Assembly (NCBI GenBank): GCA_020354105.1
Contig: CP070642.1
Coordinates: 1,541,044 to 1,584,044, forward strand
Source: Chloroflexota bacterium
GTDB lineage: Bacteria > Chloroflexota > Dehalococcoidia > GIF9 > UBA5629
Length of the DNA: 43,001 bases
Direction: 5' to 3'
The translations under genes and the position numbers were made by a program. The notes under the pieces are model-generated. The model was not told the origin of the DNA. It did no database searches and was given only the letters and a program-made list of their open reading frames with translations. Below are positions 17,510 to 37,864 of the stretch, one piece after another. The stretch's first letter is position 1. Each line of letters begins with the position of its first letter.

Positions 17510-18202
17510 TTACTGCGCTCCTGCTTTCTGAAAAGAATCGAGTACATTGATGGCATGAAAACCATCAACACAGTAGGCATCAGCACCTATTTCCTTGGCA
17601 TATTCGTCCGAAACAGCTGCACCTCCGATCAATACCTTGACCTTGTCTCTGATTTTGCTTTGTTTCAATGCTTCGATTACTTCCCTCATGACCAGCATGG
17701 TAGTAGTCAGGAGAGCAGAAAGCCCTAAAAACTGCGTCTCCGACTCCTTGACAACCTCCACAATCTTTTCCGTGGGTACATCTATACCGAGGTCGACCAC
17801 TTCATAGCCAGCTCCTTTGAGGAGAACAGCGACAATGTTCTTACCGATATCATGGATATCCCCCTTTACTGTGGCTATGACGAATTTACCCTTCGTTTGT
17901 ACGTCGGAGGCTTCCAGGTGCGGTTTTAAGATCTCCATGGCTTCACCAACAGCTTCTGCAGAAGCTAACATGTCAGGGATGAAGTATTCTTTTTGGGCGA
18001 ATTTTTCGCCAACAACTTGCATGCCTGCAGTCAGGCCCTGGGTGATTATTCTCTCCAGAGGAATGTTATTGTCAAGTGCTGACTGCGTCAATTCCACAAC
18101 TCCTGGCTTTCCTGATAATGCTTCGTCTATTCCTTCATCATCAACTGTCCTTCTTCCCTGTATGACATTTTCCTTAAGTACGGCTATGATATCTTCAATC
18201 AT
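17510..18202 (-). CDS. Corrinoid (cobalamin-binding) methyl-carrier protein, MtbC/MttC/MtgC-like (CoP1)
   Basis: 230 aa. N-terminal B12-binding cap helix bundle plus a Rossmann domain with the DxHxxG motif (KGDIHDIGKNIV) and SALLTTTM. Confidence 0.9.
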   Translation of the reverse strand: MIEDIIAVLKENVIQGRRTVDDEGIDEALSGKPGVVELTQSALDNNIPLERIITQGLTAGMQVVGEKFAQKEYFIPDMLASAEAVGEAMEILKPHLEASDVQTKGKFVIATVKGDIHDIGKNIVAVLLKGAGYEVVDLGIDVPTEKIVEVVKESETQFLGLSALLTTTMLVMREVIEALKQSKIRDKVKVLIGGAAVSDEYAKEIGADAYCVDGFHAINVLDSFQKAGAQ

Positions 18203-18204
18203 TG

Positions 18205-19746
18205 CTAGCTCCTTCCTTCATACACGTTTAGCCTGGGTAATAAGCCGGGAATCTCCTGAAATATCTTAGAGGTTGTAATCGAATCTATATGTTCTACAGG
18301 CTTTGCCAAAAGCTCATTCATTCTCTCGTAGGCTAGTGCGAACACATTATCGCTTGCCAGATCTCCTTCAAAAGGATAAGGTGGCGAGATCTCTCCGCTA
18401 CGCATAACGGGGCGAATGTGGCGAATGTACATCTTCTGAGGCGTTGCGACCACCTCTCTTATCTGCGTCAGGGTTTCAGAAATCTCCTTTTCGCCGATCA
18501 GCGCTGGCTTCAGTAAGAATTTGATCATCTGGAAATGGGCATCATCCAAGACTGCTTGGAGCAGGCAAAAGATGGCATTGCAATCAAGGAGGCCATAGGC
18601 ACAATGCAGAAACTGTGGTCCACTCAAAGTGACGACTAAATCTGAGAACAATCTCCCTATAGACGATTGCTGCCCCGGTATCTTGGCATCACAAACACCT
18701 GATGTAGAGTAGTTTGGTATCTTGTAGAACCTTGCCATTTGCACGCAATCGATGTTGTACTGGCTAGTTTCAACAGAACCGTATGAGTCACCAAGGGTGT
18801 CCATCCGTGCTCTTACTGGCACGCTCCCATAAAGAACCGGCGTCCCCTTATTTACCAGTTGGCTCAGCGTTATGCCAGCTAATACTTCAGCATTTATTTG
18901 AGCCATAATACCGGATTCCCTGATAGGAGCGCTGGTACCGGCTTGAGGTGACGATGAAACCACCACAGGCAGGCCTCTTCGACAAACCTCAATAAAAGTA
19001 TCTGTTGTATCCTCAACGAACTGTAAAGGGCTTTTTACTAAGCAGGTAATAAAGGAAATAATGGGGTTTTCCTTGAGCTGCTCTTTGCCCCCTACTATCA
19101 ACTCCGCCATCCTCACAACGTTGTCCAGTTGGTGCAAGCTAGTAAGTCCTGACATAACATGCTTGGTGGTATTATTCAAAGAGGCAAAGAACTTATTGAC
19201 GTCTTTGTTATCTTCCGTAATGTCTTTGTCTTGGATATTTACAGTACGAATGTAGCCATCCACAGTCTGCAGATGCTCACAGACATGGGCTGACTTGCAC
19301 AAGTCAGCAACTGTTCCGCGCCGGGGATGGAACTCAGGTACCCTAATCTCAGTAGCAGGCTCGGATTTTCTGACATAGGTTTGGAAATCAACGTCCAGCC
19401 AAGTATTCGTTTCAGAGCCGGTAATAAAGAATACCCGTGGCTCATCCCCTTTCATTACTAGGATATTTTCAAGGTTCCTTGCACCCAGCTTGACTGTCTT
19501 GTTTGTACTATCCACGGCACTGAGGACGAGTTCCTCGGGTATTCTTATCAGCCAGCTGGGATTATCTCCGGAGGAAACTGTTGTCACATCTGCGCCATTG
19601 CTGCGAAATATCTCCGCTGCATCCTTATTGAAAGATATTAGACCAGGATCACTTAGAATCTCCATGGAAGCGTGGTGAATCTGCTGTACCTGCTCATCGG
19701 TAATCCTTTCATAAGGCGTGCGCACTAAAATTCCTTCTCTGGGCAT
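18205..19746 (-). CDS. MttB-superfamily (COG5598) methyltransferase, non-pyrrolysine (MttB-1)
   Basis: 513 aa. Family hallmarks NNTTKHVMSG and the opening ITDEQVQQIHHASMEILSDPG. No in-frame TAG. RBS AGGAGG. Its stop lies 2 nt before the CoP1 start. Confidence 0.9.
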   Translation of the reverse strand: MPREGILVRTPYERITDEQVQQIHHASMEILSDPGLISFNKDAAEIFRSNGADVTTVSSGDNPSWLIRIPEELVLSAVDSTNKTVKLGARNLENILVMKGDEPRVFFITGSETNTWLDVDFQTYVRKSEPATEIRVPEFHPRRGTVADLCKSAHVCEHLQTVDGYIRTVNIQDKDITEDNKDVNKFFASLNNTTKHVMSGLTSLHQLDNVVRMAELIVGGKEQLKENPIISFITCLVKSPLQFVEDTTDTFIEVCRRGLPVVVSSSPQAGTSAPIRESGIMAQINAEVLAGITLSQLVNKGTPVLYGSVPVRARMDTLGDSYGSVETSQYNIDCVQMARFYKIPNYSTSGVCDAKIPGQQSSIGRLFSDLVVTLSGPQFLHCAYGLLDCNAIFCLLQAVLDDAHFQMIKFLLKPALIGEKEISETLTQIREVVATPQKMYIRHIRPVMRSGEISPPYPFEGDLASDNVFALAYERMNELLAKPVEHIDSITTSKIFQEIPGLLPRLNVYEGRS

Positions 19747-19820
19747 CCGATACCTCCTTCTAAGATTTCAGCTTGGGTAGCGTTTAGAATTTAGGTGCTG
19801 TTTTTAAGCAAAGTCCTTGC

Positions 19821-20513
19821 TCACGCAGAACCAGCGTCGAATAGCGATTCCACTACCCGGACTGCATTAAAGCCATCTGCGCCATAACCATCTGCGCCTA
19901 TACTTTTAGCGAAATCCTCTGAGACGGGAGCTCCGCCTATGATTACCTTAACCTTGTCTCTTAATCCGGCATCATTAAGCGCCTGAATGACGTCTGCCAT
20001 GTTTGCCATGGTGCTGATAAGCAGCGCTGATAATCCTAGTAATTGAGGCTGTTCTTCTCTAACTGCCTCCACAATCGTCGAGGTATCGATGTCGTTTCCC
20101 AGGTCCTTCACTGTGTAGCCCGCACCTCGGAGCAGTATCGATACTATGTTCTTGCCAATGTCGTGTAGGTCTCCCTTCACAGTAGCTACGATTATCTTAC
20201 CCTTAGCCTTGATCCCGGTTCCGGCTAGATGAGGCTCCAAAATGTCCATAGCTGCTCCAACTGCTTGAGCAGCTGCCAACATATCCGGGATGAAATACTC
20301 CTTGGCCTCGAATTTCTGACCCACAATTTCCATACCCTTGGTAAGCCCTTTGCTAATTATGTCCTGGGGGTCTATCTTCTGAACCAGCGCTGCTTCAACG
20401 AGTTCAGTAACTCCAGGCTGACCAGCCATTCCTTCTTCGAAGCCCTCATCGTCCTTGGTAATTCTTCCCTGGATGACATTCTCTTGGATTAACTTTAATA
20501 TGTCTTCTGCCAT
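19821..20513 (-). CDS. Corrinoid methyl-carrier protein (CoP2)
   Basis: 230 aa with KGDLHDIGKNIV (DxHxxG). About 60 percent identical to CoP1 over the first 96 residues by hand alignment. Confidence 0.9.
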   Translation of the reverse strand: MAEDILKLIQENVIQGRITKDDEGFEEGMAGQPGVTELVEAALVQKIDPQDIISKGLTKGMEIVGQKFEAKEYFIPDMLAAAQAVGAAMDILEPHLAGTGIKAKGKIIVATVKGDLHDIGKNIVSILLRGAGYTVKDLGNDIDTSTIVEAVREEQPQLLGLSALLISTMANMADVIQALNDAGLRDKVKVIIGGAPVSEDFAKSIGADGYGADGFNAVRVVESLFDAGSA

Positions 20514-20535
20514 TTTTGTCCTCCAGTCTGCCTAC

Positions 20536-21345
20536 TTAGTCAACTATTTTGCCTTGCCTGTAGGCTTTGATATAACCTTTGCATAACGCATCTTTGCCTG
20601 TGAGCATGTCACTTATTCTGACCAAGCTCATAGCCTTGCCATCCAGCGGGTCAAGGATTGCCGCATCAAGGCCGGCATAGGCAGCCATCAGCAGAAAGGC
20701 GCGGTTCACCAGCTTTCTATTTGGCAAGCCGAAAGATATATTGCTCAGTCCCATTACCGTCTTTGCTTCAGGATAGCGAGCCTTTATCTGCTCTATCGTC
20801 TTCAGCGTTACAAGTCCTTGCCTAGAATCTACAGCTATGGGCAACACTAGAGGATCAAAGTATATCTGTTCCGCCGTCATGCCTATACCGGTCAAGTTTG
20901 TCAGTATTGCTTCACAGGCCTCCAATCGCCGCTCGACCGTATCTGGTATGCCCTCGGAGCCCATTGCCAGTGCCACCAGCAACGCCTTGCGTTTGGCTGC
21001 TAAAGGCCCGATGGATTCTAGCCTCTCAGGCTCCGCAGTGACTGAGTTGATCATCACCGTTTCGCCACTATAGTTGCCCAGAGCAACTTCAATGATACGT
21101 GGGACATCACTATCAATGGTGAGCGGTTTATCCGTAACCGCTTGGACCGTCTTTACCAGCCATTCAATGCTCTCTGTCTCCTGTCCCTGAGTACCCTGTC
21201 CAGCACCTACATTTACGTCTATAAAATCAGCTCCGGCTTCAGCCTGAGCCTTTGCCATACCTTCAATAAATTCTCTATCCCTTCCGGCAATTGCCTCAGC
21301 AACCGTCTTATTTGATGCATTGATACACTCCCCTATTACCAGCAT
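20536..21345 (-). CDS. Methylcorrinoid:tetrahydrofolate methyltransferase (pterin-binding domain, MtgA/MtrH/AcsE-like)
   Basis: 269 aa. VIGECINASNK, ADFIDVN, LTIDS, MINSV and GLSNISFGLPNR are typical pterin-binding (DHPS-like TIM barrel) motifs. Confidence 0.85.
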   Translation of the reverse strand: MLVIGECINASNKTVAEAIAGRDREFIEGMAKAQAEAGADFIDVNVGAGQGTQGQETESIEWLVKTVQAVTDKPLTIDSDVPRIIEVALGNYSGETVMINSVTAEPERLESIGPLAAKRKALLVALAMGSEGIPDTVERRLEACEAILTNLTGIGMTAEQIYFDPLVLPIAVDSRQGLVTLKTIEQIKARYPEAKTVMGLSNISFGLPNRKLVNRAFLLMAAYAGLDAAILDPLDGKAMSLVRISDMLTGKDALCKGYIKAYRQGKIVD

Positions 21346-21348
21346 ACC

Positions 21349-22788
21349 CTACTCCACAATTCCTTTAATCTCCGCCAGTACCTGGCTCCTTACCTCTGCA
21401 GGCAAGCTATACTTGTGCGCTGCGATTATCTCTTTCACCTGCTCCGAGGCTCTTTCCCACGTGCTTTTTCTGCCATTGTTTTCCCATTCTTCCCTGCTGT
21501 GCCTGTCGCTCAGGGAAGGTTGATAGTGCTCATTGCGCATAAAACGTCTGGTGTGTTTGGCTGCGATGAAATTGCCTCCGGGTCCGACTTCCTTGATGAG
21601 ATCGAAGGCCAGCGTGTCTTCGTTAACCTTTATACCTTCGACTGCCCTCATGACCATTCCCAGTATCTCATTGTCTATTACATACTTCTCGTAGCATACC
21701 GTCATGGCGAATTCCATTAACCCTGCGGCATCGTGAATGAAATTTGCGCCAGACAGCGCACAAAGTAGATTAGTAAGGGCCGACTCATAACCACACTGAG
21801 CATCCAATATCTTGGAGTCGGTCATACCGGCCGTGGCATAGAAGGGAAGCTTGTAGAACTGGGCCATCTGAGCGCCCGCTGCATTGATTAACCCCATCTC
21901 AATTGATCCAGCAAGGTATTTCAGGTCAGTAAGGTCGGTATTGGTGGCCACAGAGCCCAGCATAACCGGAGTTCCCGGGTTTACAACTTGTGTAAGCATT
22001 ACGCCCATCAGGGAGTCCACAGTCTGGATTGCCAGGTTCCCCGCAAGTGTAATAGGTGACGTTGCCCCACATAATGGCTCCGCCGGGCATGCCAGAGGCA
22101 CGCCGCTCTTGGCGATGGTCAACAATAGGTCACCATAGGTGCTGTCCATCTTAAGAGGGCTTATACTACAGGTTATCATGGATATAAGAGGACGTTCCCT
22201 GAGCTTTTCTGCAGAGCCTGTGATGAGTTCTGCCATCCTTATAACCTGTTTCACTCCGTCGATCGTATAAACGCCCCCCATGACATGCTTAGTTGTATTG
22301 TCCAGGCCGGTGAAGAAACGGTTGACGTCCACACAATCCAATTGAAGCTCAGTGGGATAGGTTGGCAGCAGGAAAAAATGGATGTTTTCAAGGCCGTCAA
22401 CCAGTCTAGCGATGTTTTTGAGGTCTTCAAGTATGGCAGATTGCTTCGTATCCGTATCCGGATGGTAAACGTAAAGTGCAGTGCCCCCTGTACCTGCGTA
22501 CACCCGCTGACCTCCCAAAGCAATATCATTCTTCTCTTGCTGCCCGCAGAGTTTGATCTCGGAGGGCGCTGTACTAATCAGTTCCATGACCCTATTCTCA
22601 GGCAAGCGTACCCGCCGCATTTCCCAGTCAACCTGAGCCCCAGCTTGCTCAAAGAGGTACAACGCAGTTTTTGAATTTACTTCGAATCCCACCTCCTCTA
22701 TAATCCGCATGGCAGTATGATGCACCATACCGATAGCCTCGTCTGTAAGAGGTTTGAAACTGCCTCCGGGCAATCCTCTTCGAATCAT
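21349..22788 (-). CDS. MttB-superfamily methyltransferase, non-pyrrolysine (MttB-2)
   Basis: Start set at ATG 22788 (MIRRGLPGGSFKPLTDEAIGMVHHTAMRIIEEVG). The track start 22869 would overlap the upstream gene by 70 nt. DNTTKHVMGG is present and there is no in-frame TAG. The start remains somewhat uncertain because GGAGG sits 14 nt upstream. Confidence 0.88.
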   Translation of the reverse strand: MIRRGLPGGSFKPLTDEAIGMVHHTAMRIIEEVGFEVNSKTALYLFEQAGAQVDWEMRRVRLPENRVMELISTAPSEIKLCGQQEKNDIALGGQRVYAGTGGTALYVYHPDTDTKQSAILEDLKNIARLVDGLENIHFFLLPTYPTELQLDCVDVNRFFTGLDNTTKHVMGGVYTIDGVKQVIRMAELITGSAEKLRERPLISMITCSISPLKMDSTYGDLLLTIAKSGVPLACPAEPLCGATSPITLAGNLAIQTVDSLMGVMLTQVVNPGTPVMLGSVATNTDLTDLKYLAGSIEMGLINAAGAQMAQFYKLPFYATAGMTDSKILDAQCGYESALTNLLCALSGANFIHDAAGLMEFAMTVCYEKYVIDNEILGMVMRAVEGIKVNEDTLAFDLIKEVGPGGNFIAAKHTRRFMRNEHYQPSLSDRHSREEWENNGRKSTWERASEQVKEIIAAHKYSLPAEVRSQVLAEIKGIVE

Positions 22789-22799
22789 ATGTGTATGCT

Positions 22800-23522
22800 C
22801 TACCTCCTTCCTAGACAATTGCGCTTGCTGCAAGTTCTGCATGGGTTGTAGGCCTCTATATCTGCGCAAGAGGGACCGATACCGACAATGCCGGATATTG
22901 ACTTCTGTGGGATCATTAGATATCCCGCGGTTAATCGGACTCCTACTGAGTCACTATCAATCAAGCGAAAAAGCTGTTTCTGTTGCCTTATGCTCCAATC
23001 ACAGTAGCCTGGGCTGAAACGCCGGCTGACACAAAGCCCTTTGACCGAGGCCATTTTTCTTATCTCAGCCTCCATCATTTCAGCCATTTGCTCAACAGCG
23101 CTTGACCCTACTGCATCCAGTACATAGGACTCAAGTATAAGCCCATCATCACCCAGACAAGTCGCCTTTTCTTCAAGTTTATTGCCTATTGTCACTAGAA
23201 AAACCCCGACTTGCTGACATTTTTCCAAGAGTCGCGCGATGACATGACTTCGGAACATGACGAAGTCTCCAATGAACACGTCCCTTTCCCGCACCGTGTC
23301 GATATTTTTAACAACATATGAATATGATGGTTTTATAATCTTTTTTACGAACTGAACATACTCATTGATTAAAGCGGCGATTCGAGGTGATGGCTCACAA
23401 TCACCTTTGTAGCCGATACGGCTTAAAACTTGTCGTTCGTCTACTTCGATTTCTAGTTGCACGGCTGAGGTTTTAGTAATCATGATGTCCCACAATGATT
23501 CAAAGTCAATACCCTCAAACAA
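22800..23522 (-). CDS. Standalone methionine-synthase (MetH) activation-domain-like protein with a C-terminal Cys cluster
   Basis: 240 aa. RRFSPGYCDWSIRQQKQLFRLID...GVRLTAGYLMIPQKSISGIVGIG parallels E. coli MetH RPAPGYPACPEHTEK...LTESFAMWPGASVSG. The C-terminal tail is C-X8-C-X2-C-X4-C. The track start is TTG 23522; ATG 23483 is an alternative. Confidence 0.72.
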   Translation of the reverse strand: MFEGIDFESLWDIMITKTSAVQLEIEVDERQVLSRIGYKGDCEPSPRIAALINEYVQFVKKIIKPSYSYVVKNIDTVRERDVFIGDFVMFRSHVIARLLEKCQQVGVFLVTIGNKLEEKATCLGDDGLILESYVLDAVGSSAVEQMAEMMEAEIRKMASVKGLCVSRRFSPGYCDWSIRQQKQLFRLIDSDSVGVRLTAGYLMIPQKSISGIVGIGPSCADIEAYNPCRTCSKRNCLGRR

Positions 23523-23810
23523 ATAGCTGCAAGGTGGATTACGTCAGGTGAGATATGAACGGCACAGAAGAGGTGGAGCAAAACTGGGTAGGGTTAAGGT
23601 ACGTAAATCACAAAAATATCAGCATACCTTGCCTTTCAACCATGTGTGACCATCTTTAATGTTAAGATATGCCACACCTTGTCAAAAATAAGAGAAGATA
23701 CCCCTCACCTAAATTAACACTCTGGTGCTTTGGGCTCTTTCCCGACGTGCATTAGTAACTATTTACTTGTTCTCCTGGATGCTGTATATTATATCACATT
23801 GAATGCTGAT

Positions 23811-23838
23811 TTGCACCCTTCTCAATTGCCATTATAAT
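23811..23838 (+). promoter_or_regulatory. Candidate sigma70-type promoter for the plus-strand genes
   Basis: TTGCAC (23811..23816), a 16-nt spacer, then a perfect TATAAT (23833..23838), in the 384-bp divergent intergenic region. Confidence 0.45.
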
Positions 23839-23945
23839 AGCAGATGAACTGCCGGATCTTCGCCATTAACTCCAAAGGTTGCAGTTCTATTTAGCCACTA
23901 CGAATTGTGAGGTACAAATGGCCGCAGTATGCTTGCAAAGAGGAC

Positions 23946-24266
23946 ATGATGGAGACATTTAGGGTTGAAGCAGTTGTTGATGGGAACACGTTTGAGGTGT
24001 CTCCTCCCTGGGAATTGAGCGGAGAAACTGGAAATATTGTGCAAGCGATAGGCTACAATGCGCCAAAGAGTGGCAAGGGAGCAGTGGCTGCTGAACAAAG
24101 GCTTTCCATTCTTATGCAGAACAAGAATGTTGAATTAGAAGCACCGCAGGGCATAGAAGGCGGCAGATTGCTCTGCAAAGTGTACTTTCAGGGCATTAAC
24201 CTTGCAGATTATTTCAAAGCGTATAAAGAGCAGGATGATGAACCGATTGAAGAACTCGAGGAGTGA
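23946..24266 (+). CDS. Small staphylococcal-nuclease (SNase/OB-fold)-like protein with substituted catalytic residues
   Basis: About 106 aa from ATG 23946 (the track uses GTG 23907). VVDGNTFEV...IVQAIGYNAPK...GGRLLCKVY aligns by eye with SNase IDGDTVKL...FRLLLVDTPE...YGRGLAYIY. The counterparts of D21, R35, D40 and E43 are N, Q, N and K. The tail is acidic. Confidence 0.5.
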   Translation: MMETFRVEAVVDGNTFEVSPPWELSGETGNIVQAIGYNAPKSGKGAVAAEQRLSILMQNKNVELEAPQGIEGGRLLCKVYFQGINLADYFKAYKEQDDEPIEELEE

Positions 24267-24510
24267 ACTAGATATTCTTTCCGGCACCACTGGGGGTCGT
24301 CAATCTCCCACACATACTTTCATGTCATCTGTGGCTTGTCAACAATTCTGTCCTAGTATGTGTCCTTTCTTGCTCATGCCCTGGTAAAAAATTGCATTGA
24401 CTATTAGATTCCCAGTATAGTGATAATGCCTGGTAACATCGTCCAGACGACAATTATTTGTGGCATCCATAGTGCTGGCGTAAATATAGAATGCAAAAAG
24501 AGGGCCGATA

Positions 24511-25305
24511 GTGATAATTGTAGGAGAGAAAATAAATACCAGCCGGAAGAGTATAGAAGAAGCTGTTAAAAATCGTGATACCTCATTCATCGTCAGAGTA
24601 GCTAGAGAGCAAGCCGAAGCGGGCGCTAACTATATTGACGTCAATGCCGGAACCTTTTTGGATAAAGAAACAGACTACCTGAGTTGGCTGGTTGAGGCAG
24701 TGCAAAGTGAAGTTGACATACCACTAGCGCTGGATAGTCCTAACCCGAAAGCTCTGGCCGAAGCGATAAAGCGCCATAAAGGTGTGCCGATGATTAATTC
24801 CATTTCGCTTGAGGAGGACCGGCTCCAATCCCTGCTTCCTATAATCTCCGCTCAGCCCTGCAATGTAGTAGCACTCTGTATGTCTCAAACATCTATGCCC
24901 ACCACCGTGGAAGAAAGGGTGGCGGTAGGTTCGGAACTTATCAAAAAGCTTACCGGTGCAGGTACTCCTCTGGAGATGATTTATGTGGACCCTCTAATAC
25001 AGCCTATCTCCGTAGATGTCAACATGGCACTAGCTGCCCTCGGAGCCATTCGGAAAATCATGCACGATTTCCCAGGCGTGAATACTATCTGCGGCCTCTC
25101 CAACGTCTCCTTCGGCCTACCGAAGCGCCGCATAATCAATCGCAACTTTCTGTCTCTGTGCATTTCCTACGGTCTGTCTGCTGTAATTATGGACCCAGCT
25201 GACAGGGAACTGATGACAACTCTGATTACTGTGGAGATGCTCCTTGGCCGGGACGAATATTGTGGAAACTATATCGAGGCTTATCAAAATGGGCACCTTG
25301 AATGA
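24511..25305 (+). CDS. Methylcorrinoid:tetrahydrofolate methyltransferase (pterin-binding domain), second copy
   Basis: 264 aa with a GTG start and RBS AGAGGG. VGEKINTSRK, ANYIDVN, LALDS, MINSI and GLSNVSFGLPKR. Confidence 0.85.
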   Translation: MIIVGEKINTSRKSIEEAVKNRDTSFIVRVAREQAEAGANYIDVNAGTFLDKETDYLSWLVEAVQSEVDIPLALDSPNPKALAEAIKRHKGVPMINSISLEEDRLQSLLPIISAQPCNVVALCMSQTSMPTTVEERVAVGSELIKKLTGAGTPLEMIYVDPLIQPISVDVNMALAALGAIRKIMHDFPGVNTICGLSNVSFGLPKRRIINRNFLSLCISYGLSAVIMDPADRELMTTLITVEMLLGRDEYCGNYIEAYQNGHLE

Positions 25306-25389
25306 GTACAATGTTTGATTTTTATGGCTTTTCAGGGGCAACTGTGGTAAACGAGCGACAATCCTAAAACGAGCGAAAGGAGGTTGAAG

Positions 25390-26028
25390 ATGAACGACTT
25401 TAAGGCACTATCTGAAGCTGTGAACAAGGGAGATAACAAGACTGCCTTGGTAGAAGTCCAGAAATCGCTGGACGCTGGTAGCAGTGCCGAGGAGATTCTA
25501 AACAAAGGACTGATTACTGCTATGAACGAGGTGGGAGACAAATTTTCCAAGGGGCTCATATTTGTTCCACAAATGCTACGATCTGCTAAAACCATGCAAG
25601 AGTGTACTAACTTGCTCCAGCCGTTTTTCCAGGAAGGTGATATCACCTCCAAAGGAAAGGTGCTGATTGGGACGGTCAAGGGAGACCTGCATGACATCGG
25701 CAAAAACCTGGTTTCAATGATGTTAGAGGGTGCAGGATTTACTATAACAGACTTGGGAGTGGACATACCCCCTGAAAAGTTTGTGGAGAAGACGAAGGAG
25801 GTAAAACCAGATATAATCGGTTTGTCTGCGTTACTCTCCACTACTATGCCAGCCATGGCCCAGACCATAGAGGCTCTGCAGAAAGCCGGACTAAGAGATC
25901 AAGTTAAGATAATAATTGGTGGCGCTCCTGTAACCGAAAAATACGCACAACAGATAAATGCGGACTCATATGCGCCCGACGCAGGTTCTGCCGTAAACAA
26001 AGCCAAAGCGCTGCTTGGCATCTCCTGA
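25390..26028 (+). CDS. Corrinoid methyl-carrier protein (CoP3)
   Basis: Start at ATG 25390, 6 nt after AAAGGAGG (the track uses TTG 25384). KGDLHDIGKNLV (DxHxxG) and SALLSTTM. Confidence 0.9.
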   Translation: MNDFKALSEAVNKGDNKTALVEVQKSLDAGSSAEEILNKGLITAMNEVGDKFSKGLIFVPQMLRSAKTMQECTNLLQPFFQEGDITSKGKVLIGTVKGDLHDIGKNLVSMMLEGAGFTITDLGVDIPPEKFVEKTKEVKPDIIGLSALLSTTMPAMAQTIEALQKAGLRDQVKIIIGGAPVTEKYAQQINADSYAPDAGSAVNKAKALLGIS

Positions 26029-26053
26029 GAACATATCATTGAAGAGGTGAGTT

Positions 26054-27502
26054 ATGAAATCCTCGGAAGTTCCAGGCTTTCGCCCCCGACTAAAAGTGCT
26101 CAATCGTGAGCAGGTACTGGCTATTCATAGTGCTGCCTTGGAAATCTTGGAAAAGACAGGGTTCAAGATGGAGCACCCGGGTGCACTGAGAATGCTGCTC
26201 AATGCTGGCTGCAAGGTCAGCGGTCAAGATTGGGTTAGGCTTCCTGTCAAGCTTGTTGAAGATGCCTTGCGTTCAGCTCCTAGGCAGATTGATCTCTATG
26301 ACCAGAAGGGTAACAAAACAATGCCTCTGGTTAACGGCAACTATTTCTATGGCACTGGCTCAGATGCTACTTTCACTGTTGACATTGAGACAGGCCAGCG
26401 CCGCAGATCCACCCTAAAAGATGCCGCCAATTTTGCCAGGCTTATCGATGGACTGGAGAACATGGATTTTGCCATGTCTATGTCAAATCCGGTAGATGCT
26501 CCTATCGAAGATATCTACGTCTATGTTTTTGCTGAAATGATAAAAAATACCAATAAACCTATTGTGTGCATCGCAGATAGCGGTAGAGACATCGCCAAAA
26601 TATACCAGATTGCCTGCCAGGTGGTCGGTAGCGAAGAAGCGCTACAGCAGAAACCATTTATCCTCAATTATTCGGAGGCTATCAGCCCGCTGCGTTTTCC
26701 TGAAAACGTAATGGAGAGGCTCATTTTCTGTGCCGAAAAGAAGATACCTGTCTGCCTCCCCTCTGGATCCAATGCCGGAGGCGGAGCACCGATCACCCTT
26801 GCCGGAGCAATGGCTCTGGGAATAGCAGAGAATTTGATAGGATTGGTGGTACACCAACTTGCCGGCAAAGGTTCTCCCTTTCTGTTTGGCCCCAATGTCA
26901 GTACTCTGGACATGAAATCAACCATCGTTTCGTACGGGTGCCCGGAATGGAGCTTGACACAGGCGGCTCTTGCCGACATGCGAGATGAACTATATGGGTT
27001 GCCCATCTGGGCTTATGCCGGAGCCACCGATGCAAAATTAATGGATGCCCAAGCGGGAGCTGAGGCTATGTTTTCCATCGTCACCGCCATGCTTTCCCGG
27101 GCTAATTTAATCCACGATGTAGGTTTTCTCGAATACGGGAGCACCTCCTCCCTTGAAATGGTTACTATGGCTAATGAACTGGTCGCCATGAGTCGTTTCT
27201 TCACCGCTGGCATTACGGTAAATGAGGAAACCATGGCTCTGGAAGCCATAGAGAGGGTAGCAACTGGTGCCCCGGGTTCCATTTTCTTAATGGACGACCA
27301 TACCTTTGAACACTTTATGCAAGCTCAGTTTTTACCGAAGCTTCTAGACCGTTCCCGCTATGATTCTTGGGAGCAATCAGGTTCTTTCGATCTCTATAAG
27401 CGCTGCAATATCGAAGCCAAGAGAATCCTGTCAGAACAACAAGTGGAACCTAAGTCCACTGAAGTACTCAAAGGAATTGAGCAAATCCTCCAAATGCGCT
27501 GA
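26054..27502 (+). CDS. MttB-superfamily methyltransferase, non-pyrrolysine (MttB-3)
   Basis: 482 aa. The opening VLNREQVLAIHSAALEILEKTG and overall family pattern. No in-frame TAG. Confidence 0.9.
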   Translation: MKSSEVPGFRPRLKVLNREQVLAIHSAALEILEKTGFKMEHPGALRMLLNAGCKVSGQDWVRLPVKLVEDALRSAPRQIDLYDQKGNKTMPLVNGNYFYGTGSDATFTVDIETGQRRRSTLKDAANFARLIDGLENMDFAMSMSNPVDAPIEDIYVYVFAEMIKNTNKPIVCIADSGRDIAKIYQIACQVVGSEEALQQKPFILNYSEAISPLRFPENVMERLIFCAEKKIPVCLPSGSNAGGGAPITLAGAMALGIAENLIGLVVHQLAGKGSPFLFGPNVSTLDMKSTIVSYGCPEWSLTQAALADMRDELYGLPIWAYAGATDAKLMDAQAGAEAMFSIVTAMLSRANLIHDVGFLEYGSTSSLEMVTMANELVAMSRFFTAGITVNEETMALEAIERVATGAPGSIFLMDDHTFEHFMQAQFLPKLLDRSRYDSWEQSGSFDLYKRCNIEAKRILSEQQVEPKSTEVLKGIEQILQMR

Positions 27503-27515
27503 CGGAAGTTCGAAT

Positions 27516-28961
27516 ATGGGAAAGAGTTTACCAGTTTTCAAACCGCTTCCACCTGCAGATGTAAGAAGAATTGATCAGGCAAGCCGTCAGATACTGAAAC
27601 GCATCGGTATAAGAATCAAAGATGACGCTATCCTAGACAAGTTGAAGAAGGCGGGAGCAAAAGTAGATTACCATAATCAGAGAGTGCGTTTTGAAGAGGA
27701 ATGGCTTGACGAGCTCCTCAGCCGCGCCCCGTCCAAGTTTACCTTATACTCCAGAGACGAAAAACATAATCTACCCTTGGGAGAAGGTGAAGTCCATTTT
27801 GCTAATGGGGGACGGGTGTTTCGCATTATCAATATTGCGGATGGTGATTACCGTCTCACCATGCTAAAAGACATAGCTCACACTGCCACTCTGGTGGATC
27901 GCCTGGAACATATCCGCTTCTATGTCATAGCGTGCCAGGCACATGACGTGGAGCCGCAATATTATCATTTGAACGACTTTTGTAATGCTTTCAACAATAC
28001 TAACAAGCATGTAATGGGAGGCTGCGATAATGTGGAAGGGGTAAGACAAGTCTGGAAACTAGCCAGTTTAATAGCTGGTGGTGAAGACAGACTCAGAAAA
28101 AAGCCCTTCTTTTCTGTGATAACCAACCCTATAAGCCCGCTTACCATCGGGCCCAACGCCGCCAAAATTCTCAGTTTCTGTGCTATACATGGTATTCCTG
28201 TAACCTGTGCATCGGCACCTATAGCTGGCGCCACCTCGCCAGTTACATTAGCAGGTACTCTTGCCCAGATGCATGCTGAGGTGCTGGCAGGAATATCTAT
28301 CACACAGATATTCTTCCCCGGAGCCAAGGTGCTTTACGGCGCAGTGCCCACAACTATGGATTTGAGAAACATGGAGTTTTCCATGGGCTCATCAGAAATG
28401 GGCATGATGAGTGCTGCTGCAGTCCAGCTATCAAAGCTCTACCATTTGCCTATTCGTGCTTCTGCAGGCGTTACCGAGTCTAAAAGACCTGACATTCAAT
28501 CAGGCGTTGAGAAGAGTTTTTCCAATCTGATGGTTGCTATGGCCGGAGCAGACTGCGTTCTCTTGGCAGCTGGAATGCTTGATTCTGGCAATTCCGTTTC
28601 TTATGAGCAATATGCTATAGACAATGAAATCATTGGGATGGTATATAGAGTGCTTTCTGGCATTAGAGTGAATAAAGAAACTCTCAGTTTGGATGTAATA
28701 GAGCAAGTAGGTCCCGGCGGAAATTATATTATGGAAGAACATACTGTCGATTGTATGAGGGAGGAATTTTTCTATCCTGGCTTAAGCATACGCTACAATT
28801 TTGATATTTGGGAGGAACGAGGGCATCCTGATATGTTGAGCCGTGCCAACGACATGGTTCATAATATTTTAACAGAACACGCAGAGGGCAAAGACGGGCT
28901 TTTAGGCACAGATATGCTCCGAGAGATAAGAAAAACCTTCCCTGAAATAAAGAATATCTGA
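27516..28961 (+). CDS. MttB-superfamily methyltransferase, non-pyrrolysine (MttB-4)
   Basis: Start set at ATG 27516 (MGKSLPVFKPLPPADVRRIDQASRQILKRIG). The track start 27360 lies inside MttB-3. NNTNKHVMGG is present and there is no in-frame TAG. Confidence 0.9.
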   Translation: MGKSLPVFKPLPPADVRRIDQASRQILKRIGIRIKDDAILDKLKKAGAKVDYHNQRVRFEEEWLDELLSRAPSKFTLYSRDEKHNLPLGEGEVHFANGGRVFRIINIADGDYRLTMLKDIAHTATLVDRLEHIRFYVIACQAHDVEPQYYHLNDFCNAFNNTNKHVMGGCDNVEGVRQVWKLASLIAGGEDRLRKKPFFSVITNPISPLTIGPNAAKILSFCAIHGIPVTCASAPIAGATSPVTLAGTLAQMHAEVLAGISITQIFFPGAKVLYGAVPTTMDLRNMEFSMGSSEMGMMSAAAVQLSKLYHLPIRASAGVTESKRPDIQSGVEKSFSNLMVAMAGADCVLLAAGMLDSGNSVSYEQYAIDNEIIGMVYRVLSGIRVNKETLSLDVIEQVGPGGNYIMEEHTVDCMREEFFYPGLSIRYNFDIWEERGHPDMLSRANDMVHNILTEHAEGKDGLLGTDMLREIRKTFPEIKNI

Positions 28962-28962
28962 A

Positions 28963-29574
28963 ATGACAACATCGCATAAAACAAGAACAACCACACATAT
29001 AATTGCTTGCGCAGTGTTTATGGCAGCAATAGAACATCTTCAACTAAAGAAAAAGTTTCCCAATATTCGTTTGACCTATTTGCCAGCTAGATTACATCTT
29101 AGACCCGCGGAGTTGAAGAAATGCTTGCAAAGGGAGGTAAGCAGATCTCAAGCAAAGGGTGAACGGGTAATATGCCTCTACGGGGACTGTTTTCCAGATA
29201 TAGATGGCTTCTGTAAAAGGCATAGCATTATCAAGGTGCCGGGCTCTTACTGTTATGAGATGCTGCTCGGCAGCGAGCGATTCAATCAGCTCATTGATGA
29301 GACAACAGGAACCTACTTTTTGGAGGAGGGGTTGATTATCAACTTCGAAGATTTCTGTATGGAACCCCTGGATCTCAAAGATGAGGAAATTCGGCGACAA
29401 TGTTTTGAACACTACAAGAAGCTGCTCTATATACGTCAGCCTTCAGATCCGAACCTTATACCTAGAGCTAGCGAATTGGCCCAATTACTAGAGCTATCCC
29501 TGGAAATTCAAGATGCGGATTATTCTCATATTGAAAAGTCACTTACTGAATCGCTCACGGGTGGTGTATGTTAA
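28963..29574 (+). CDS. DUF1638-family protein (unknown function, recurrently linked to corrinoid methyltransferase loci)
   Basis: 203 aa. Its ATG is 1 nt after the MttB-4 stop. The pattern HIIACAVF...LPARLHLRPAELKKCLQ...VICLYGDCFP...GSYCYEMLLG...GTYFLEEG fits my recollection of DUF1638. Confidence 0.65.
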   Translation: MTTSHKTRTTTHIIACAVFMAAIEHLQLKKKFPNIRLTYLPARLHLRPAELKKCLQREVSRSQAKGERVICLYGDCFPDIDGFCKRHSIIKVPGSYCYEMLLGSERFNQLIDETTGTYFLEEGLIINFEDFCMEPLDLKDEEIRRQCFEHYKKLLYIRQPSDPNLIPRASELAQLLELSLEIQDADYSHIEKSLTESLTGGVC

Positions 29575-29657
29575 ATACTGCTAAAGAAATCAAGCCCACT
29601 GCACGTAATAGGAATAAGCAAGCGATAAAACCGCGCCAAAAAAAGGAACGCAGGCAA

Positions 29658-29891
29658 ATGAAAGTCTGGCTCCATGTCTTTCCCAAGGATATCTGGGTGC
29701 CAGCGCAGTATGGAGAGACTATATGGGCGGCATTGCGTAGGGCTAACATCGAGCTGGACAGCGATTGTGGTGGAGCAGGCAACTGTGGAAAATGTAAGAT
29801 AAAGGTCCTTTCAGTAGTTGACCCACCAACCAAAGCAGGACAGAAACTGCTCGACAAAGACGCACTGCAGGAGGGTTTCCGTCTTGCCTGA
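29658..29891 (+). CDS. N-terminal plant-type 2Fe-2S ferredoxin domain of a RACE-type corrinoid reductive activase, ending at in-frame TGA 29889..29891
   Basis: MKVWLHVFPKD...DSDCGGAGNCGKCKIKV...EGFRLA-stop. It has C-X5-C-X2-C but the fourth Cys codon position is occupied by TGA. ATG 29658 is preferred over track ATG 29568, whose 30-residue K/R-rich extension overlaps the DUF1638 gene. Confidence 0.7.
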   Translation: MKVWLHVFPKDIWVPAQYGETIWAALRRANIELDSDCGGAGNCGKCKIKVLSVVDPPTKAGQKLLDKDALQEGFRLA

Positions 29892-29912
29892 CGTACTAAA
29901 GTAAAGCGAGAT

Positions 29913-31529
29913 TTGGCTATCTCAACGGAAAAAGCAGACACAGGGCTGGACTATCTAAAGATTCTAACCACCAGCCATGTTCTCCGTAGTAGGTATATTC
30001 CGGTTTCGCAGCTTGAGCCACTTATAGAGAGGCGACTCGTCACCCTGCCCTCTGAGTCCCGCAACGAAAGGCTTTCGTATTTGAGCTGGGTAAAGCTGGG
30101 ATTGGGCGCCGAATACAGCGACCTGCAAGCCTCGATTCACTGTCTTCGCACACTGCCCCAGATGTTGAAGAAGACTAAGTCCAGCGGGGTGGCTGTACTC
30201 CATAATAACTCTTTAATTGCCTGGCAAGACCCTGAGAAATCGAAAAACGGCTATGGATTGGTCTTTGACCTCGGTACCAGCACCATTGTGGGTAAGTTAA
30301 TCAACTTGTCAAACGGTAGTGAGGCCTCCGTCGATTCCTGCCTCAATGGGCAGAGATGGCACGGCTCAGACGTAATAAGTCGCCTTAACTACGTTAAACA
30401 GAATCCCACAGGAGGTCTGCGTACTTTGCATAATCTTCTGGTGGACGACCTCAATAACATAACCAGTCACCTCCTAGAAGCTACTGGCCTCAAAGCAGAT
30501 GATGTCCTTATTGCCGTTGCTGCAGGAAACACCACCATGCAGCACTTTCTGTTAAATTTATCTCCCGATGGTATAGCCGAAGCACCATTCTCACCTATAG
30601 TGACCGATGGCTTGATTGTAAATGCGGCCGACGTTGGCCTAAGATTGAATCCGGCAGCCTTGCTCTATATTATGCCCGCAAAATCAGGCTACATCGGCGG
30701 GGACCTGATTAGCTTCGTGCTAAACTCGGGCGTTTCTGAACAAGAGGATGAAATCATTCTTGGACTGGACCTCGGTACCAATGGGGAAATATTTCTCGGC
30801 AATGGCAAAAGGCTACTGACATGCTCAGCAGCCGCCGGTCCTGCCCTGGAAGGAGCGCGAATCTCCTCCGGGATGATAGCCAGGGCGGGTGCACTGGAAG
30901 GCGTCAGAATCGAACAGGGACAACTGCATTACCGCGTAATCGGGAATATCAAGCCCAAGGGCCTCTGCGGTAGTGGACTGGTCGACCTGGTGGCAGTTCT
31001 ATTACATTGTGGTGTAATCGACCCCGAAGGCTCCATTCGCCCAACTCGAAAAGCAGAATATCAGAATTTAAATTCAAGAGTAATCAAGCGGTCATATTGC
31101 TATGATTTTCTCGTTGCTACCGAAGAAGAAAGCTTCCACGGCCGGCCGATATACCTTACTCAAAAAGATGTTCGCGAGCTGCAGCTTGCCAAGGGGGCTA
31201 TAGCTGCCGGTGTGCACACACTGATGGACGAATTAGGCATCGGGCTTGAGGATATCAAACATGTATATCTGGCTGGTGCATTGGGGAATTACATTGACCC
31301 CATCAGCACTTTGCGAATCGGCCTTCTTCCAGGAATTAATGTTGAGCTCATCAAGTCGTTAGGAAACGCTGCCAGCCTAGGAGCTTCCATGGTTCTGTTG
31401 TCTAGGAAGCACTGGCAGATGGCAAAAGACGTGGTCAATTTCATGGAGCATGTCGAGCTTTCCTACCGCCACGACTTCAATCAATACTTCGTTCAACATA
31501 TGGGCTTCCCTGAAAAGAACATATGGTAA
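29913..31529 (+). CDS. ASKHA-fold ATPase portion (DUF4445) of a RACE-type corrinoid reductive activase; same frame as 29658..29891
   Basis: 538 aa as tracked from TTG 29913. YGLVFDLGTSTIVGK, AGNTTMQHFLL, GLDLGTNGEIFLG and CSAAAGPALEGARISSGM are ASKHA/RACo-like motifs. No stop other than TGA 29889 separates it from the ferredoxin domain. Confidence 0.8.
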   Translation: MAISTEKADTGLDYLKILTTSHVLRSRYIPVSQLEPLIERRLVTLPSESRNERLSYLSWVKLGLGAEYSDLQASIHCLRTLPQMLKKTKSSGVAVLHNNSLIAWQDPEKSKNGYGLVFDLGTSTIVGKLINLSNGSEASVDSCLNGQRWHGSDVISRLNYVKQNPTGGLRTLHNLLVDDLNNITSHLLEATGLKADDVLIAVAAGNTTMQHFLLNLSPDGIAEAPFSPIVTDGLIVNAADVGLRLNPAALLYIMPAKSGYIGGDLISFVLNSGVSEQEDEIILGLDLGTNGEIFLGNGKRLLTCSAAAGPALEGARISSGMIARAGALEGVRIEQGQLHYRVIGNIKPKGLCGSGLVDLVAVLLHCGVIDPEGSIRPTRKAEYQNLNSRVIKRSYCYDFLVATEEESFHGRPIYLTQKDVRELQLAKGAIAAGVHTLMDELGIGLEDIKHVYLAGALGNYIDPISTLRIGLLPGINVELIKSLGNAASLGASMVLLSRKHWQMAKDVVNFMEHVELSYRHDFNQYFVQHMGFPEKNIW

Positions 31530-32521: not shown

Positions 32522-32522
32522 C

Positions 32523-34382: not shown

Positions 34383-34397
34383 TTCACAAATATTTGG

Positions 34398-36954: not shown

Positions 36955-36956
36955 CT

Positions 36957-37844: not shown

Positions 37845-37864
37845 GTTAGTTAATTTCCTCAAAA

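Follow-up and report, generated by a model that had tools for sequence, protein, structure and literature searches.

The MtgB-MtgC-MtgA proteins of Desulfitobacterium hafniense (PDB 2QNE and 9YCE) form a glycine betaine:tetrahydrofolate (THF) methyltransferase system, in which a non-pyrrolysine (non-Pyl) methyltransferase of the MttB superfamily (MT1) works with a small His-on corrinoid protein and a pterin-binding methyltransferase (MT2). MttB-MttC of Methanosarcina barkeri (PDB 7XCL), from the same superfamily, is a Pyl-dependent trimethylamine methyltransferase with coenzyme M as methyl acceptor. In Eubacterium limosum, divergent non-Pyl MT1 enzymes (MtpB, MtcB, MtyB, and MthB) outnumber their partner corrinoid proteins and MT2s, and the pathway leads to THF (PMC8604678, PMC12155760, PMC13080624). 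The glycine-betaine motif of MtgB has been defined experimentally as Y97, R312, H348, and F356, and R312 is conserved in MtgB, MtcB, MtpB, MtyB, and MthB (PMC13080624). Regarding corrinoid repair, DUF1638 beside a RamA/RACo-type activase is the B12 reactivation pair of the split methionine synthase and MtgBCD systems of Phaeobacter inhibens and Ruegeria pomeroyi, genetically defined in P. inhibens (PMC5764234), and the split methionine synthase of T. maritima (TM0268/TM0269) includes a stand-alone MetH reactivation domain, TM0269.

The genes described here come from the genome of an uncultured marine-sediment Dehalococcoidia bacterium, in a stretch of 43 kb (43,001 nucleotides) that we refer to as the window. 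They comprise four MttB-family genes, three corrinoid proteins, two methyl-THF methyltransferases, a MetH-activation-like gene, DUF1638, and a reductive activase (RACo). All 12 genes listed in the initial annotation were found where it had placed them, in the same order and on the same strands. However, what it had treated as a single "supercluster" is actually two separately inherited, adjoining operons, conserved independently and juxtaposed in this genome. Its limits (positions 17510 to 31529) do contain the listed genes, but the conserved minus operon extends to 15076 through an AsnB-like and an MBL-fold gene. We give a probability of about 0.6 to the reading that these are two corrinoid-dependent methyl-transfer operons, in which methyl groups would pass from MT1 to corrinoid protein to THF, each with its own Co(II) repair. 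The features of the region are as follows.

15076 to 15924, minus strand: MBL-fold hydrolase (Pfam Lactamase_B_2, 57 bits), with which the conserved minus operon ends
15989 to 17476, minus strand: AsnB-family (asparagine-synthase-like) protein (Pfam Asn_synthase and GATase_7)
17510 to 18202, minus strand: CoP1, corrinoid protein, predicted partner of MttB-1 (Pfam B12-binding and B12-binding_2)
18205 to 19746, minus strand: MttB-1, MT1 (Pfam MTTB, 181.6 bits)
19821 to 20513, minus strand: CoP2, corrinoid protein (Pfam B12-binding and B12-binding_2)
20536 to 21345, minus strand: MT2a, methyl-THF:corrinoid methyltransferase (Pfam Pterin_bind; NF005719, 299 bits)
21349 to 22788, minus strand: MttB-2, MT1 (Pfam MTTB, 362.4 bits)
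21726 to 21825, minus strand: Rfam PYLIS_3 match within MttB-2 (55.1 bits; gathering score, 38)
22800 to 23483, minus strand: stand-alone MetH reactivation-domain protein, TM0269-like (PF02965, Met_synt_B12, 42 bits)
23699 to 23835, no strand: conserved non-coding block of the divergent intergenic region (stretches of 20 to 31 nt identical in the window and in related loci L001 and L002)
23907 to 24266, plus strand: 119-aa small ORF preceding the plus operon, with conservation limited to L001 (81%) and L002 (78%)
24511 to 25305, plus strand: MT2b, methyl-THF:corrinoid methyltransferase (Pfam Pterin_bind; NF005719, 329 bits)
25384 to 26028, plus strand: CoP3, sole corrinoid protein of the plus operon (Pfam B12-binding and B12-binding_2)
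26054 to 27502, plus strand: MttB-3, MT1 (Pfam MTTB, 280.4 bits)
27516 to 28961, plus strand: MttB-4, MT1 (Pfam MTTB, 354.3 bits)
28963 to 29574, plus strand: DUF1638 (PF07796, 101 bits), partner of RamA/RACo-type activase
29568 to 31529, plus strand: RACo-type reductive activase (Pfam Fer2, followed by Raco_middle and RACo_C_ter)

The four MttB genes (MTTB gathering score, 25) are, as had been claimed, amber-free and uninterrupted, being ORFs without any kind of internal stop. The start of MttB-2 is most likely the ATG at 22788 rather than the TTG at 22869, while MttB-4 starts at 27516, although its ORF opens at 27360 (the database form has 481 aa). MT2a and MT2b, both above the NF005719 cutoff of 259, are 41% identical, and CoP1 and CoP2 are 58.5% identical. 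The corrinoid proteins differ from MtgC, reaching 208 to 216 bits against MtgC model cutoffs of 370; with TIGR02370, CoP1 scored 199.9 bits (under the 215.3 cutoff) and CoP3 202 bits. The DxHxxG motif reads DIHDIG in CoP1 and DLHDIG in CoP2 and CoP3.

Dozens of Dehalococcoidia species carry the minus operon. Its core was recovered as MttB-2 in 80 loci, the MetH-activation-like gene in 69, corrinoid proteins in 66, MttB-1 in 65, and MT2a in 53. The MetH reactivation-domain gene, with which the operon opens, lies directly upstream of MttB-2 in 69 of the 80. The AsnB-like gene, 33 nt downstream of CoP1 and predicted to be cotranscribed with it, comes after MttB-1/CoP in the same orientation in 40 of 46 loci, and an MBL ortholog occupies the equivalent relative position in 16 related loci as well as in L081 to L083. 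The AsnB-like protein scored 345 bits with NCBIfam AsnB, under the cutoff of 499, and lacks the N-terminal Cys nucleophile; N-termini in this group read MAGIAG, MASIAG, or MSGLA instead of MCGIAG. The plus operon is found elsewhere as a fixed set of six genes, MT2-CoP-MttB3-MttB4-DUF1638-RACo (L001, L047, and L081 to L086). The two operons stand tail to tail in L081 to L083 and L085, and on separate contigs of one MAG in L013 and L084. Relatives with MttB-4::DUF1638 (P0107) and DUF1638::RACo fusions link DUF1638 to both of its neighbors. Between the operons, the conserved non-coding block is probably a promoter or operator; promoter-like hexamers were located at 23762 to 23790 and 23810 to 23838, and no folding signal was detected in the block on either strand. 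The small ORF beside it had no match in Pfam or NCBIfam searches.

The divergence of the paralogs, which the initial annotation had placed in their N-terminal halves, is indeed deep but runs over the full length, with 26 to 37% mutual identity and 23 to 35% to MtgB and Pyl-MttB. Among solved structures, MtgB (27 to 32% identical) ranked first or second for all four, and 7XCL ranked first for MttB-4. Pocket-defining residues were taken from PMC13080624 and PMC9842639, and signatures were read off an alignment with MtgB and M. barkeri MttB at 23 to 35% identity rather than off structures. Each orthogroup showed its own conserved signature. That of MttB-1, the most divergent MT1 (23 to 27% identity to the reference enzymes), is S-E-S-Y-V-(H)C-N, conserved across 56 orthologs; its clade is isolated, with three full-length 50%-cluster representatives at 47 to 56% and then at most 41%. 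MttB-2 has G-T-E-Y-M-(H)D-A, invariant in 81 Dehalococcoidia sequences (71 to 93% identity). MttB-3 has S-D-G-W-A-H(D)-G, invariant but for one Ser at the Pyl position, and evolves very slowly (none of its best 120 homolog clusters falls below 80% identity). MttB-4, with G-R-A-R-V-L-G, alone among the four carries Arg where MtgB has R312. In its orthogroup R100 is kept in 115 of 120 homologs, while R314, the R312 equivalent, is Arg in 30 of 120, confined to the closest subclade, and Tyr in 87. This Arg/Tyr switching within one orthogroup suggests that, in these clades, substrate charge may not be readable from this residue.

At the Pyl position the paralogs carry V, M, A, and V (MttB-1 to MttB-4), the Met of MttB-2 being invariant. 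They lack the UAG of M. barkeri MttB, have its Tyr364 replaced, and all fall under the TIGR02369 cutoff of 525 (454 bits for MttB-2). MttB-2 nevertheless keeps the Gly110-Thr111 pair and a Tyr at the R312 equivalent, and the DNA that follows its Pyl position passes the Rfam PYLIS_3 threshold. This match starts at the Met322 codon, with AUG in place of the UAG of the model; we rejected it as a recoding signal and attribute it to coding-sequence homology to Pyl-type mttB.

In the alignment, the glycine-betaine motif of MtgB is absent from all four paralogs, and the R312 position is an invariant Tyr in MttB-1 and MttB-2 and an invariant Trp in MttB-3. These three also depart from the E. limosum enzymes, which all keep R312 going by their published description (PMC13080624). 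The earlier step from the lack of Pyl to glycine betaine, proline betaine, carnitine, or gamma-butyrobetaine is therefore weakened, and classical betaine substrates are poorly supported for MttB-1, MttB-2, and MttB-3. Because the anion-binding Arg that every characterized enzyme for acidic quaternary amines shares is missing and acidic residues are found instead, cationic substrates devoid of acidic groups, or else secondary or tertiary amines, appear more likely for them. MttB-4, with two arginines, could accept an acidic substrate.

These residues bear on the alternative that the paralogs are four independent catabolic demethylases, each delivering methyl groups from its own classical quaternary amine (one of those above or similar) to methyl-THF, which we regard as unlikely. 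In its favor, work of the Krzycki laboratory reportedly has one corrinoid protein and one MT2 serving several MT1 enzymes in E. limosum. The deep divergence, the two arginines of MttB-4 (R100 being near-invariant), and the lack of Pyl point the same way, as the characterized non-Pyl members named in PMC13080624 and PMC12155760 all use a quaternary amine. Against it, besides the pocket residues, the MT1 genes are passed on in constant pairs (MttB-2 with MttB-1, MttB-3 with MttB-4) and not as shuffled modules. Four different substrates, as first proposed, would agree with the divergence, but a fixed pair per operon fits a paired function at least equally. Moreover, the ORFs of 110 aa or more in the whole 43-kb window include no BCCT or ABC betaine transporter, nor is one conserved across the 80 loci. 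The block was correctly described as devoid of transporters and regulators, none of which is conserved beside the operon in those loci either; LexA (12818 to 13465) is the sole transcription factor in the window. Unlike in E. limosum, there is no linked kinase such as MthK.

In the two-operon reading that we prefer, the funneling of methyl groups to methyl-THF, as initially suggested, is the natural interpretation, because non-Pyl MttB MT1s are encoded alongside corrinoid proteins, their predicted cognate partners, and MT2s predicted to form methyl-THF. In either operon, the MT1 would demethylate an N-methylated substrate and load the methyl group onto the Co(I) corrinoid of the small His-on protein, and the MT2 would then transfer it from CH3-Co(III) to THF, feeding one-carbon metabolism. 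Oxidized Co(II) would be repaired in the minus operon by the TM0269-like domain, implying SAM-dependent reductive methylation, and in the plus operon by DUF1638 with the ATP-dependent RACo activase. Split methionine synthase and MtgBCD systems differ in that here both devices occur at one locus, one per operon, and are predicted to serve MttB-family MT1s.

It is improbable that the minus operon is instead an anabolic, split-MetH-like system whose methyl-corrinoid or methyl-THF goes into making methionine and one-carbon units and not into energy metabolism, an arrangement that would resemble the shared MtgBCD/methionine-synthase modules of Ruegeria and Phaeobacter. Its first gene does encode a MetH reactivation domain, whose best solved structure is 1J6R of T. 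maritima (TM0269; 1.1e-09), with RFSPGY aligned and the RxxxGY motif kept; MetH-like B12 and pterin modules are present, MttB-2 is very strongly conserved (71 to 93% across 80 species), and dual-use systems have a precedent (PMC12478193). However, the window and the conserved neighbors contain no homocysteine-binding (S-methyltransferase) domain, and only a fraction of Dehalococcoidia species has the operon (265 matches in the species collection). The operon is also apparently eroded in two closed MAG chromosomes, where a 167-aa MttB fragment (L051) and a 173-aa pterin-binding fragment (L080) were found, which argues against an essential role. This erosion counts against the two-operon scheme as well, as does the lack of any linked transporter that would account for uptake.

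The activase gene, listed initially as RACE, is present but is not one ORF. Its Fer2 domain (29568 to 29888) is followed by an in-frame TGA (29889 to 29891) and 545 further codons, the TGA standing where the [2Fe-2S] domain has its fourth Cys (GFRLA*RTKV). This stop also counts against the proposed scheme. That the plus operon is decaying or non-functional in this genome, through the nonsense mutation in its dedicated activase, is a very doubtful explanation: the fourth Cys ligand is lost, a more than 90% identical relative (P0242) has TGC in the identical context (GFRLACRTKV), Cys is found in all site-spanning RACo homologs among the matches listed, and no SECIS-like fold was seen at the TGA (z-score, +1.2), but the 545 codons are undamaged, the remaining plus-operon genes are intact and highly conserved, and a single-base assembly error, read-through, or Sec insertion is possible, selenoprotein-rich MAGs occurring among Dehalococcoidia (PMC13326102).

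Judging from the sequences, the machinery would be of a familiar kind, and what appears new is a pair of well-conserved operons whose four substrate-binding enzymes have pockets unlike those of the known enzymes compared and seem to match none of the known substrate types considered here.

The gene order proposed in the initial annotation was matched by the ORF map and profile searches, which place the two divergent operons as follows.

Genes of the two operons, each from the ORF map and profile search (CoP, corrinoid protein; MT2, methyl-THF:corrinoid methyltransferase; RACo, reductive activase)
22800-23483, minus strand, MetH-activation-like protein
21349-22788, minus strand, MttB-2
20536-21345, minus strand, MT2a
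19821-20513, minus strand, CoP2
18205-19746, minus strand, MttB-1
17510-18202, minus strand, CoP1
24511-25305, plus strand, MT2b
25384-26028, plus strand, CoP3
26054-27502, plus strand, MttB-3
27516-28961, plus strand, MttB-4
28963-29574, plus strand, DUF1638
29568-31529, plus strand, RACo (split by a TGA)

The proposed gene bounds needed correction at the start of MttB-4, now 27516 (the 481-aa form, which is the form on record). MttB-1 to MttB-4 contain zero internal stop codons, as expected of the uninterrupted genes described before. They are also as divergent as had been claimed, with pairwise identities of 26-37% (highest for MttB-2/MttB-4), except that the divergence is spread over their full length and not limited to the N-terminal halves. 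All three CoPs scored above the gathering scores of the B12-binding cap and Rossmann profiles PF02607 and PF02310, carry the His-on DxHxxG motif (DIHDIG in CoP1, DLHDIG in CoP2 and CoP3) and reached 194-202 bits against TIGR02370, the model for MttC/MtgC-type cognate corrinoid proteins, slightly below its cutoff of 215.3. Both MT2 proteins (MT2a, 299.2 bits; MT2b, 328.7 bits) exceeded the cutoff of 259 for NF005719 (AcsE/MtgA-like). In each operon these components would form a standard three-component relay, with methyl groups passing from the MttB-family substrate:corrinoid methyltransferase (MT1) to the corrinoid protein, then to MT2 and THF. Upstream of the plus operon, a 119-aa ORF (23907-24266, plus strand) had zero family matches and is kept only in the two closest genomes (78-81%).

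To evaluate conservation, MttB-2 was scanned against one genome per species, which gave 265 relatives, and loci were counted among the best 80. All of these were Dehalococcoidia/Dehalococcoidales MAGs and single cells with identities of 71-93%, the closest among the matches listed being a Black Sea MAG. The core of the minus operon was widely retained in these 80 loci (MetH-activation-like gene in 69, MttB-2 in 80, MT2a in 53, CoPs in 66 and MttB-1 in 65), and the plus operon lay alongside it in only three of them (L001, L002 and L047). In other loci (L081-L086) the plus operon keeps a constant composition of MT2, CoP, MttB-3, MttB-4, DUF1638 and RACo. In L081-L083 and L085 it adjoins the end of a minus-type operon tail to tail, and one MAG carries the two operons on separate contigs (L013 and L084). 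Their juxtaposition recurs in more than one arrangement. Since they are found apart or differently arranged in relatives, the 14-kb supercluster of the initial annotation stands as to its genes and their order and not as one unit; it is two separately inherited operons side by side.

Some variation was found among these loci. MttB-3 is evolving much more slowly than the adjoining MttB-4 (best 120 clusters at least 80% identical versus 66-87%). Another form of the minus operon, seen at L010 9761-11008 and in comparable loci, combines an MttB-1 that is more distant (53-58% identity) with a single CoP and a 415-aa class-I SAM-methyltransferase-like gene inserted between MttB-1/CoP and the AsnB-like gene that follows. 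Two closed MAG chromosomes carry what seem to be eroded remains of the minus operon, an MttB fragment of 167 aa (L051, 12259-12762) and a pterin-binding fragment of 173 aa (L080, 11452-11973), with no corrinoid protein near either. An apparently split MttB-3 in L085 (at about 3240 and 4000), close to the Pyl-equivalent position, corresponds to runs of N and is an assembly artefact.

The activase at the end of the plus operon has all its domains (Fe-S, Raco_middle and ASKHA C-terminal) and is not one intact polypeptide. An in-frame TGA (29889-29891) takes the place of the fourth [2Fe-2S] Cys ligand (context GFRLA*RTKV). Intact homologs are 616-657 aa long. At this site the L001 and L047 orthologs read TGC, and among the best 120 homolog clusters listed every full-length member has Fer2 with the Cys. 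Most likely the TGA is a nonsense mutation or a base error, and a rival view of the plus operon is that it has locally decayed through this stop. Selenocysteine was considered because a Cys ligand is the residue replaced and because selenoproteins abound in some Dehalococcoidia MAGs (PMC13326102); this abundance keeps the idea alive as a slim chance. We rate it unlikely because a relative with more than 90% identity shows Cys in the same context, no second TGA-bearing homolog was present among the 120 clusters listed, no significant SECIS-like fold was found downstream of the TGA (a weak hairpin occurs also in a Cys-encoding ortholog) and the window contains no other candidate recoded in-frame TGA. 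An apparent second split RACo (protein P0223, L087 560-600) proved to be a poly-C frameshift with the Cys intact, that is, an assembly artefact.

DUF1638, whose role is to our knowledge known so far from genetics only, precedes RACo. In relatives it is fused to MttB-4 (P0107, 682 aa, L081 10001-12049) or to RACo (P0185 and P0197, about 850 aa), and these fusions suggest that DUF1638 would touch both the methyltransferase and the activase, bridging the two. In Phaeobacter, B12 reactivation needs DUF1638 together with a RamA-like protein, and the pair co-occurs across alpha-proteobacteria (PMC5764234). The gene that opens the minus operon encodes a PF02965 protein (42.4 bits, gathering score 25). 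It resembles Thermotoga maritima TM0269 (1J6R, 1.1e-09), which serves a split MetH as a separate reactivation protein, and its RFSPGY aligns with RISPGY at the putative SAM-binding motif RxxxGY. Thus, the operons have separate and unlike predicted corrinoid repair devices, TM0269-like in the minus operon and DUF1638 plus RACo in the plus operon. The minus operon could instead be an anabolic system similar to a split MetH, as its TM0269-like gene might be taken to mean, but the homocysteine domain is not present, and the eroded appearance of the operon in the two closed chromosomes also counts against this.

All four MT1 proteins belong to the COG5598 superfamily by Pfam MTTB (PF06253, gathering score 25), with 181.6, 362.4, 280.4 and 354.3 bits for MttB-1 to MttB-4. 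In the same order they reached 260.6, 454.3, 370.7 and 447.3 bits against TIGR02369, all below its equivalog cutoff of 525 bits; this is the sole NCBIfam model bearing on the Eubacterium limosum enzymes MtpB, MtcB, MtyB and MthB. Their identity to the solved relatives matched, the glycine betaine enzyme MtgB of Desulfitobacterium hafniense (2QNE and 9YCE), Methanosarcina barkeri Pyl-MttB (7XCL) and a Sinorhizobium protein (4YYC), was 23-35%, and MtgB and Pyl-MttB are likewise far apart (31%). The glycine-betaine site of MtgB is made up of Y97, R312, H348 and F356, and R312, which binds the acidic group, is reported as conserved in MtgB, MtcB, MtpB, MtyB and MthB, the last a phosphocholine enzyme; acidic quaternary amines are the substrates of all five (PMC13080624). 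The MttB structure defined Gly110-Thr111, Met249, Pyl334 and Tyr364, of which Gly110-Thr111 and Tyr364 are fully conserved in Pyl-MttBs (PMC9842639). Aligning the paralogs with both enzymes gave seven pocket positions, with Y97/G110 and H348/Y364 as shared columns.

Pocket residues in the order Y97/G110, T111, M249, R312, Pyl334, H348/Y364, F356
MtgB: Y G L R L H F
Pyl-MttB: G T M Y Pyl Y G
MttB-1: S E S Y V C N (H before C)
MttB-2: G T E Y M D A (H before D)
MttB-3: S D G W A H G (D after H)
MttB-4: G R A R V L G

Where M. barkeri has Pyl334, none of the four has UAG; the residues there are Val in MttB-1, Met in MttB-2, Ala in MttB-3 and Val in MttB-4. The complete Pyl-MttB set of Gly110-Thr111 and Tyr364 is likewise missing from all four, Gly-Thr being kept by MttB-2 only and the Tyr364 column reading C in MttB-1, D beside a His in MttB-2, H in MttB-3 and L in MttB-4. 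MtgB differs from every paralog at its glycine-betaine binding motif, with Y97/R312/H348/F356 aligned to S,Y,C,N in MttB-1, G,Y,D,A in MttB-2, S,W,H,G in MttB-3 and G,R,L,G in MttB-4. While R312 is common to MtgB, MtpB, MtcB, MtyB and MthB, only MttB-4 has an Arg there; MttB-1, MttB-2 and MttB-3 have invariant Y, Y and W. The earlier model of four non-Pyl paralogs acting on classical betaines is therefore weakened, as the motif comparisons count against it, with the MtgB motif absent from all four and the R312 Arg from three.

These signatures are conserved inside their own orthogroups. That of MttB-2 is invariant in 81 sequences, including the Met at the Pyl position, and that of MttB-3 in the best 120 clusters listed, bar one Ser at the Pyl position. 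Among 56 MttB-1 orthologs the S, E, Y and preceding H are invariant and two subtypes exist at the last two positions; in an exhaustive search this clade was small and isolated, with three full-length representatives at 47-56% and the next at 41% or less. For MttB-4, Arg100 is nearly invariant, and the R312 position has Arg only in the nearest 30 of the 120 homologs listed and Tyr in 87. At the T111, R312 and Pyl positions, close relatives of MttB-4 read R-R-V and others R-Y-L or R-Y-V, two subtypes that are a possible specificity switch inside one orthogroup. The best 120 homologs of MttB-3 and of MttB-4 carry generic names only. Because the pockets of MttB-1, MttB-2 and MttB-3 contain acidic residues, these enzymes may take cationic substrates that have no acidic group; MttB-4, with its two arginines, may take an acidic one. 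As a precedent within the family for non-amine substrates, the chloromethane enzyme CdmB was discarded, because its paper cites MttB just to compare kinetics.

An Rfam PYLIS_3 match inside MttB-2 (21726-21825, minus strand; 55 bits versus a gathering score of 38) begins exactly at the Pyl334-equivalent codon, here AUG (Met322), where Pyl-type mttB has UAG. It was rejected as a Pyl recoding signal because of this AUG, because the model contains few pairs and because similar, weaker matches occur in MttB-3 (26 bits) and MttB-4 (22 bits). The match is coding-sequence similarity to Pyl-type mttB and a false positive for recoding, and it shows MttB-2 as the paralog nearest to true MttB around the active site.

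An AsnB-family gene (15989-17476, minus strand) follows MttB-1 and its CoP, on the same strand in 40 of the 46 loci long enough to judge. The window protein is below the AsnB model cutoff, and N-termini in this group are mostly MAGIAG, MASIAG or MSGLA and not MCGIAG, so that the Cys, and therefore the glutaminase nucleophile, is missing. Next comes a gene of the MBL fold (15076-15924, minus strand), with MBL genes present in 16 loci. The AsnB-like/MBL association may concern the fate of the demethylated product. No conserved gene was found upstream of the MetH-activation-like gene in related loci. As had been noted for the block, there is no betaine-type transporter, nor is there one anywhere in the 43-kb window, and LexA is the only regulator in that window. 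Between the divergent operons, the intergenic block 23699-23835 contains runs of 20-31 nt unchanged between the three closest genomes (window, L001 and L002) and overlaps promoter-like hexamers; no RNA folding signal was found in it, and promoter and terminator scans did no better than with shuffled sequence. The flanks (10045-12596 and 31802-37862) encode two 2-oxoacid:ferredoxin oxidoreductase sets and a NuoE/NuoF-like flavoprotein set with Fe-S subunits, and in L081-L083 POR genes directly follow RACo. The flanking oxidoreductases are a possible low-potential electron source for corrinoid reactivation.

The best-supported reading is that each operon would run the MT1/CoP/MT2/THF relay with its own fixed MT1 pair, and that the substrates of at least three of the MT1 enzymes are probably not classical betaines. 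A more specific joint reading, to which we give a probability of only about 15%, is that MttB-2 would be a Pyl-independent methyltransferase acting on a cationic amine that lacks an acidic group, for example a methylamine, tetramethylammonium or a choline-like compound, that MttB-2/MttB-1 and MttB-3/MttB-4 would strip successive methyls off one compound or act as heteromers, and that the product left after demethylation would be processed by the Cys-less AsnB-like enzyme. Behind it stand the invariant Met of MttB-2 at the Pyl site, its retained Gly-Thr and Tyr and the Glu and Asp added to its pocket.

In anaerobes, sets of several MttB paralogs with unknown specificity are familiar, and E. limosum has dozens of MttB-family members, so the architecture itself would not surprise a specialist. 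A literature search found no description of the operon in Dehalococcoidia. What is new is a set of four uncharacterised orthogroups, strongly conserved in a major uncultured sediment lineage, whose predicted pockets fall outside the residue definitions of known enzymes, together with the two kinds of reactivation module and the Cys-less AsnB-like enzyme linked to them. Lacking the substrate signatures of the characterised members compared, the four MT1 proteins are therefore clonable targets to widen the substrate range of the MttB superfamily, and the fusions of DUF1638 with MttB-4 and RACo give it a testable physical role. Dehalococcoidia are among the most abundant marine-sediment bacteria, and their diet is largely unknown. 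The minus operon is kept at 71-93% across dozens of their species, and MttB-3 of the plus operon is at least 80% identical in more than 100 clusters. Both operons point to methylated nitrogen compounds as a probable regular one-carbon source for these Dehalococcoidia, and the joint reading, if true, would provide the abundant subseafloor members with a way to feed the folate pathway from methylamines or osmolytes independently of Pyl.
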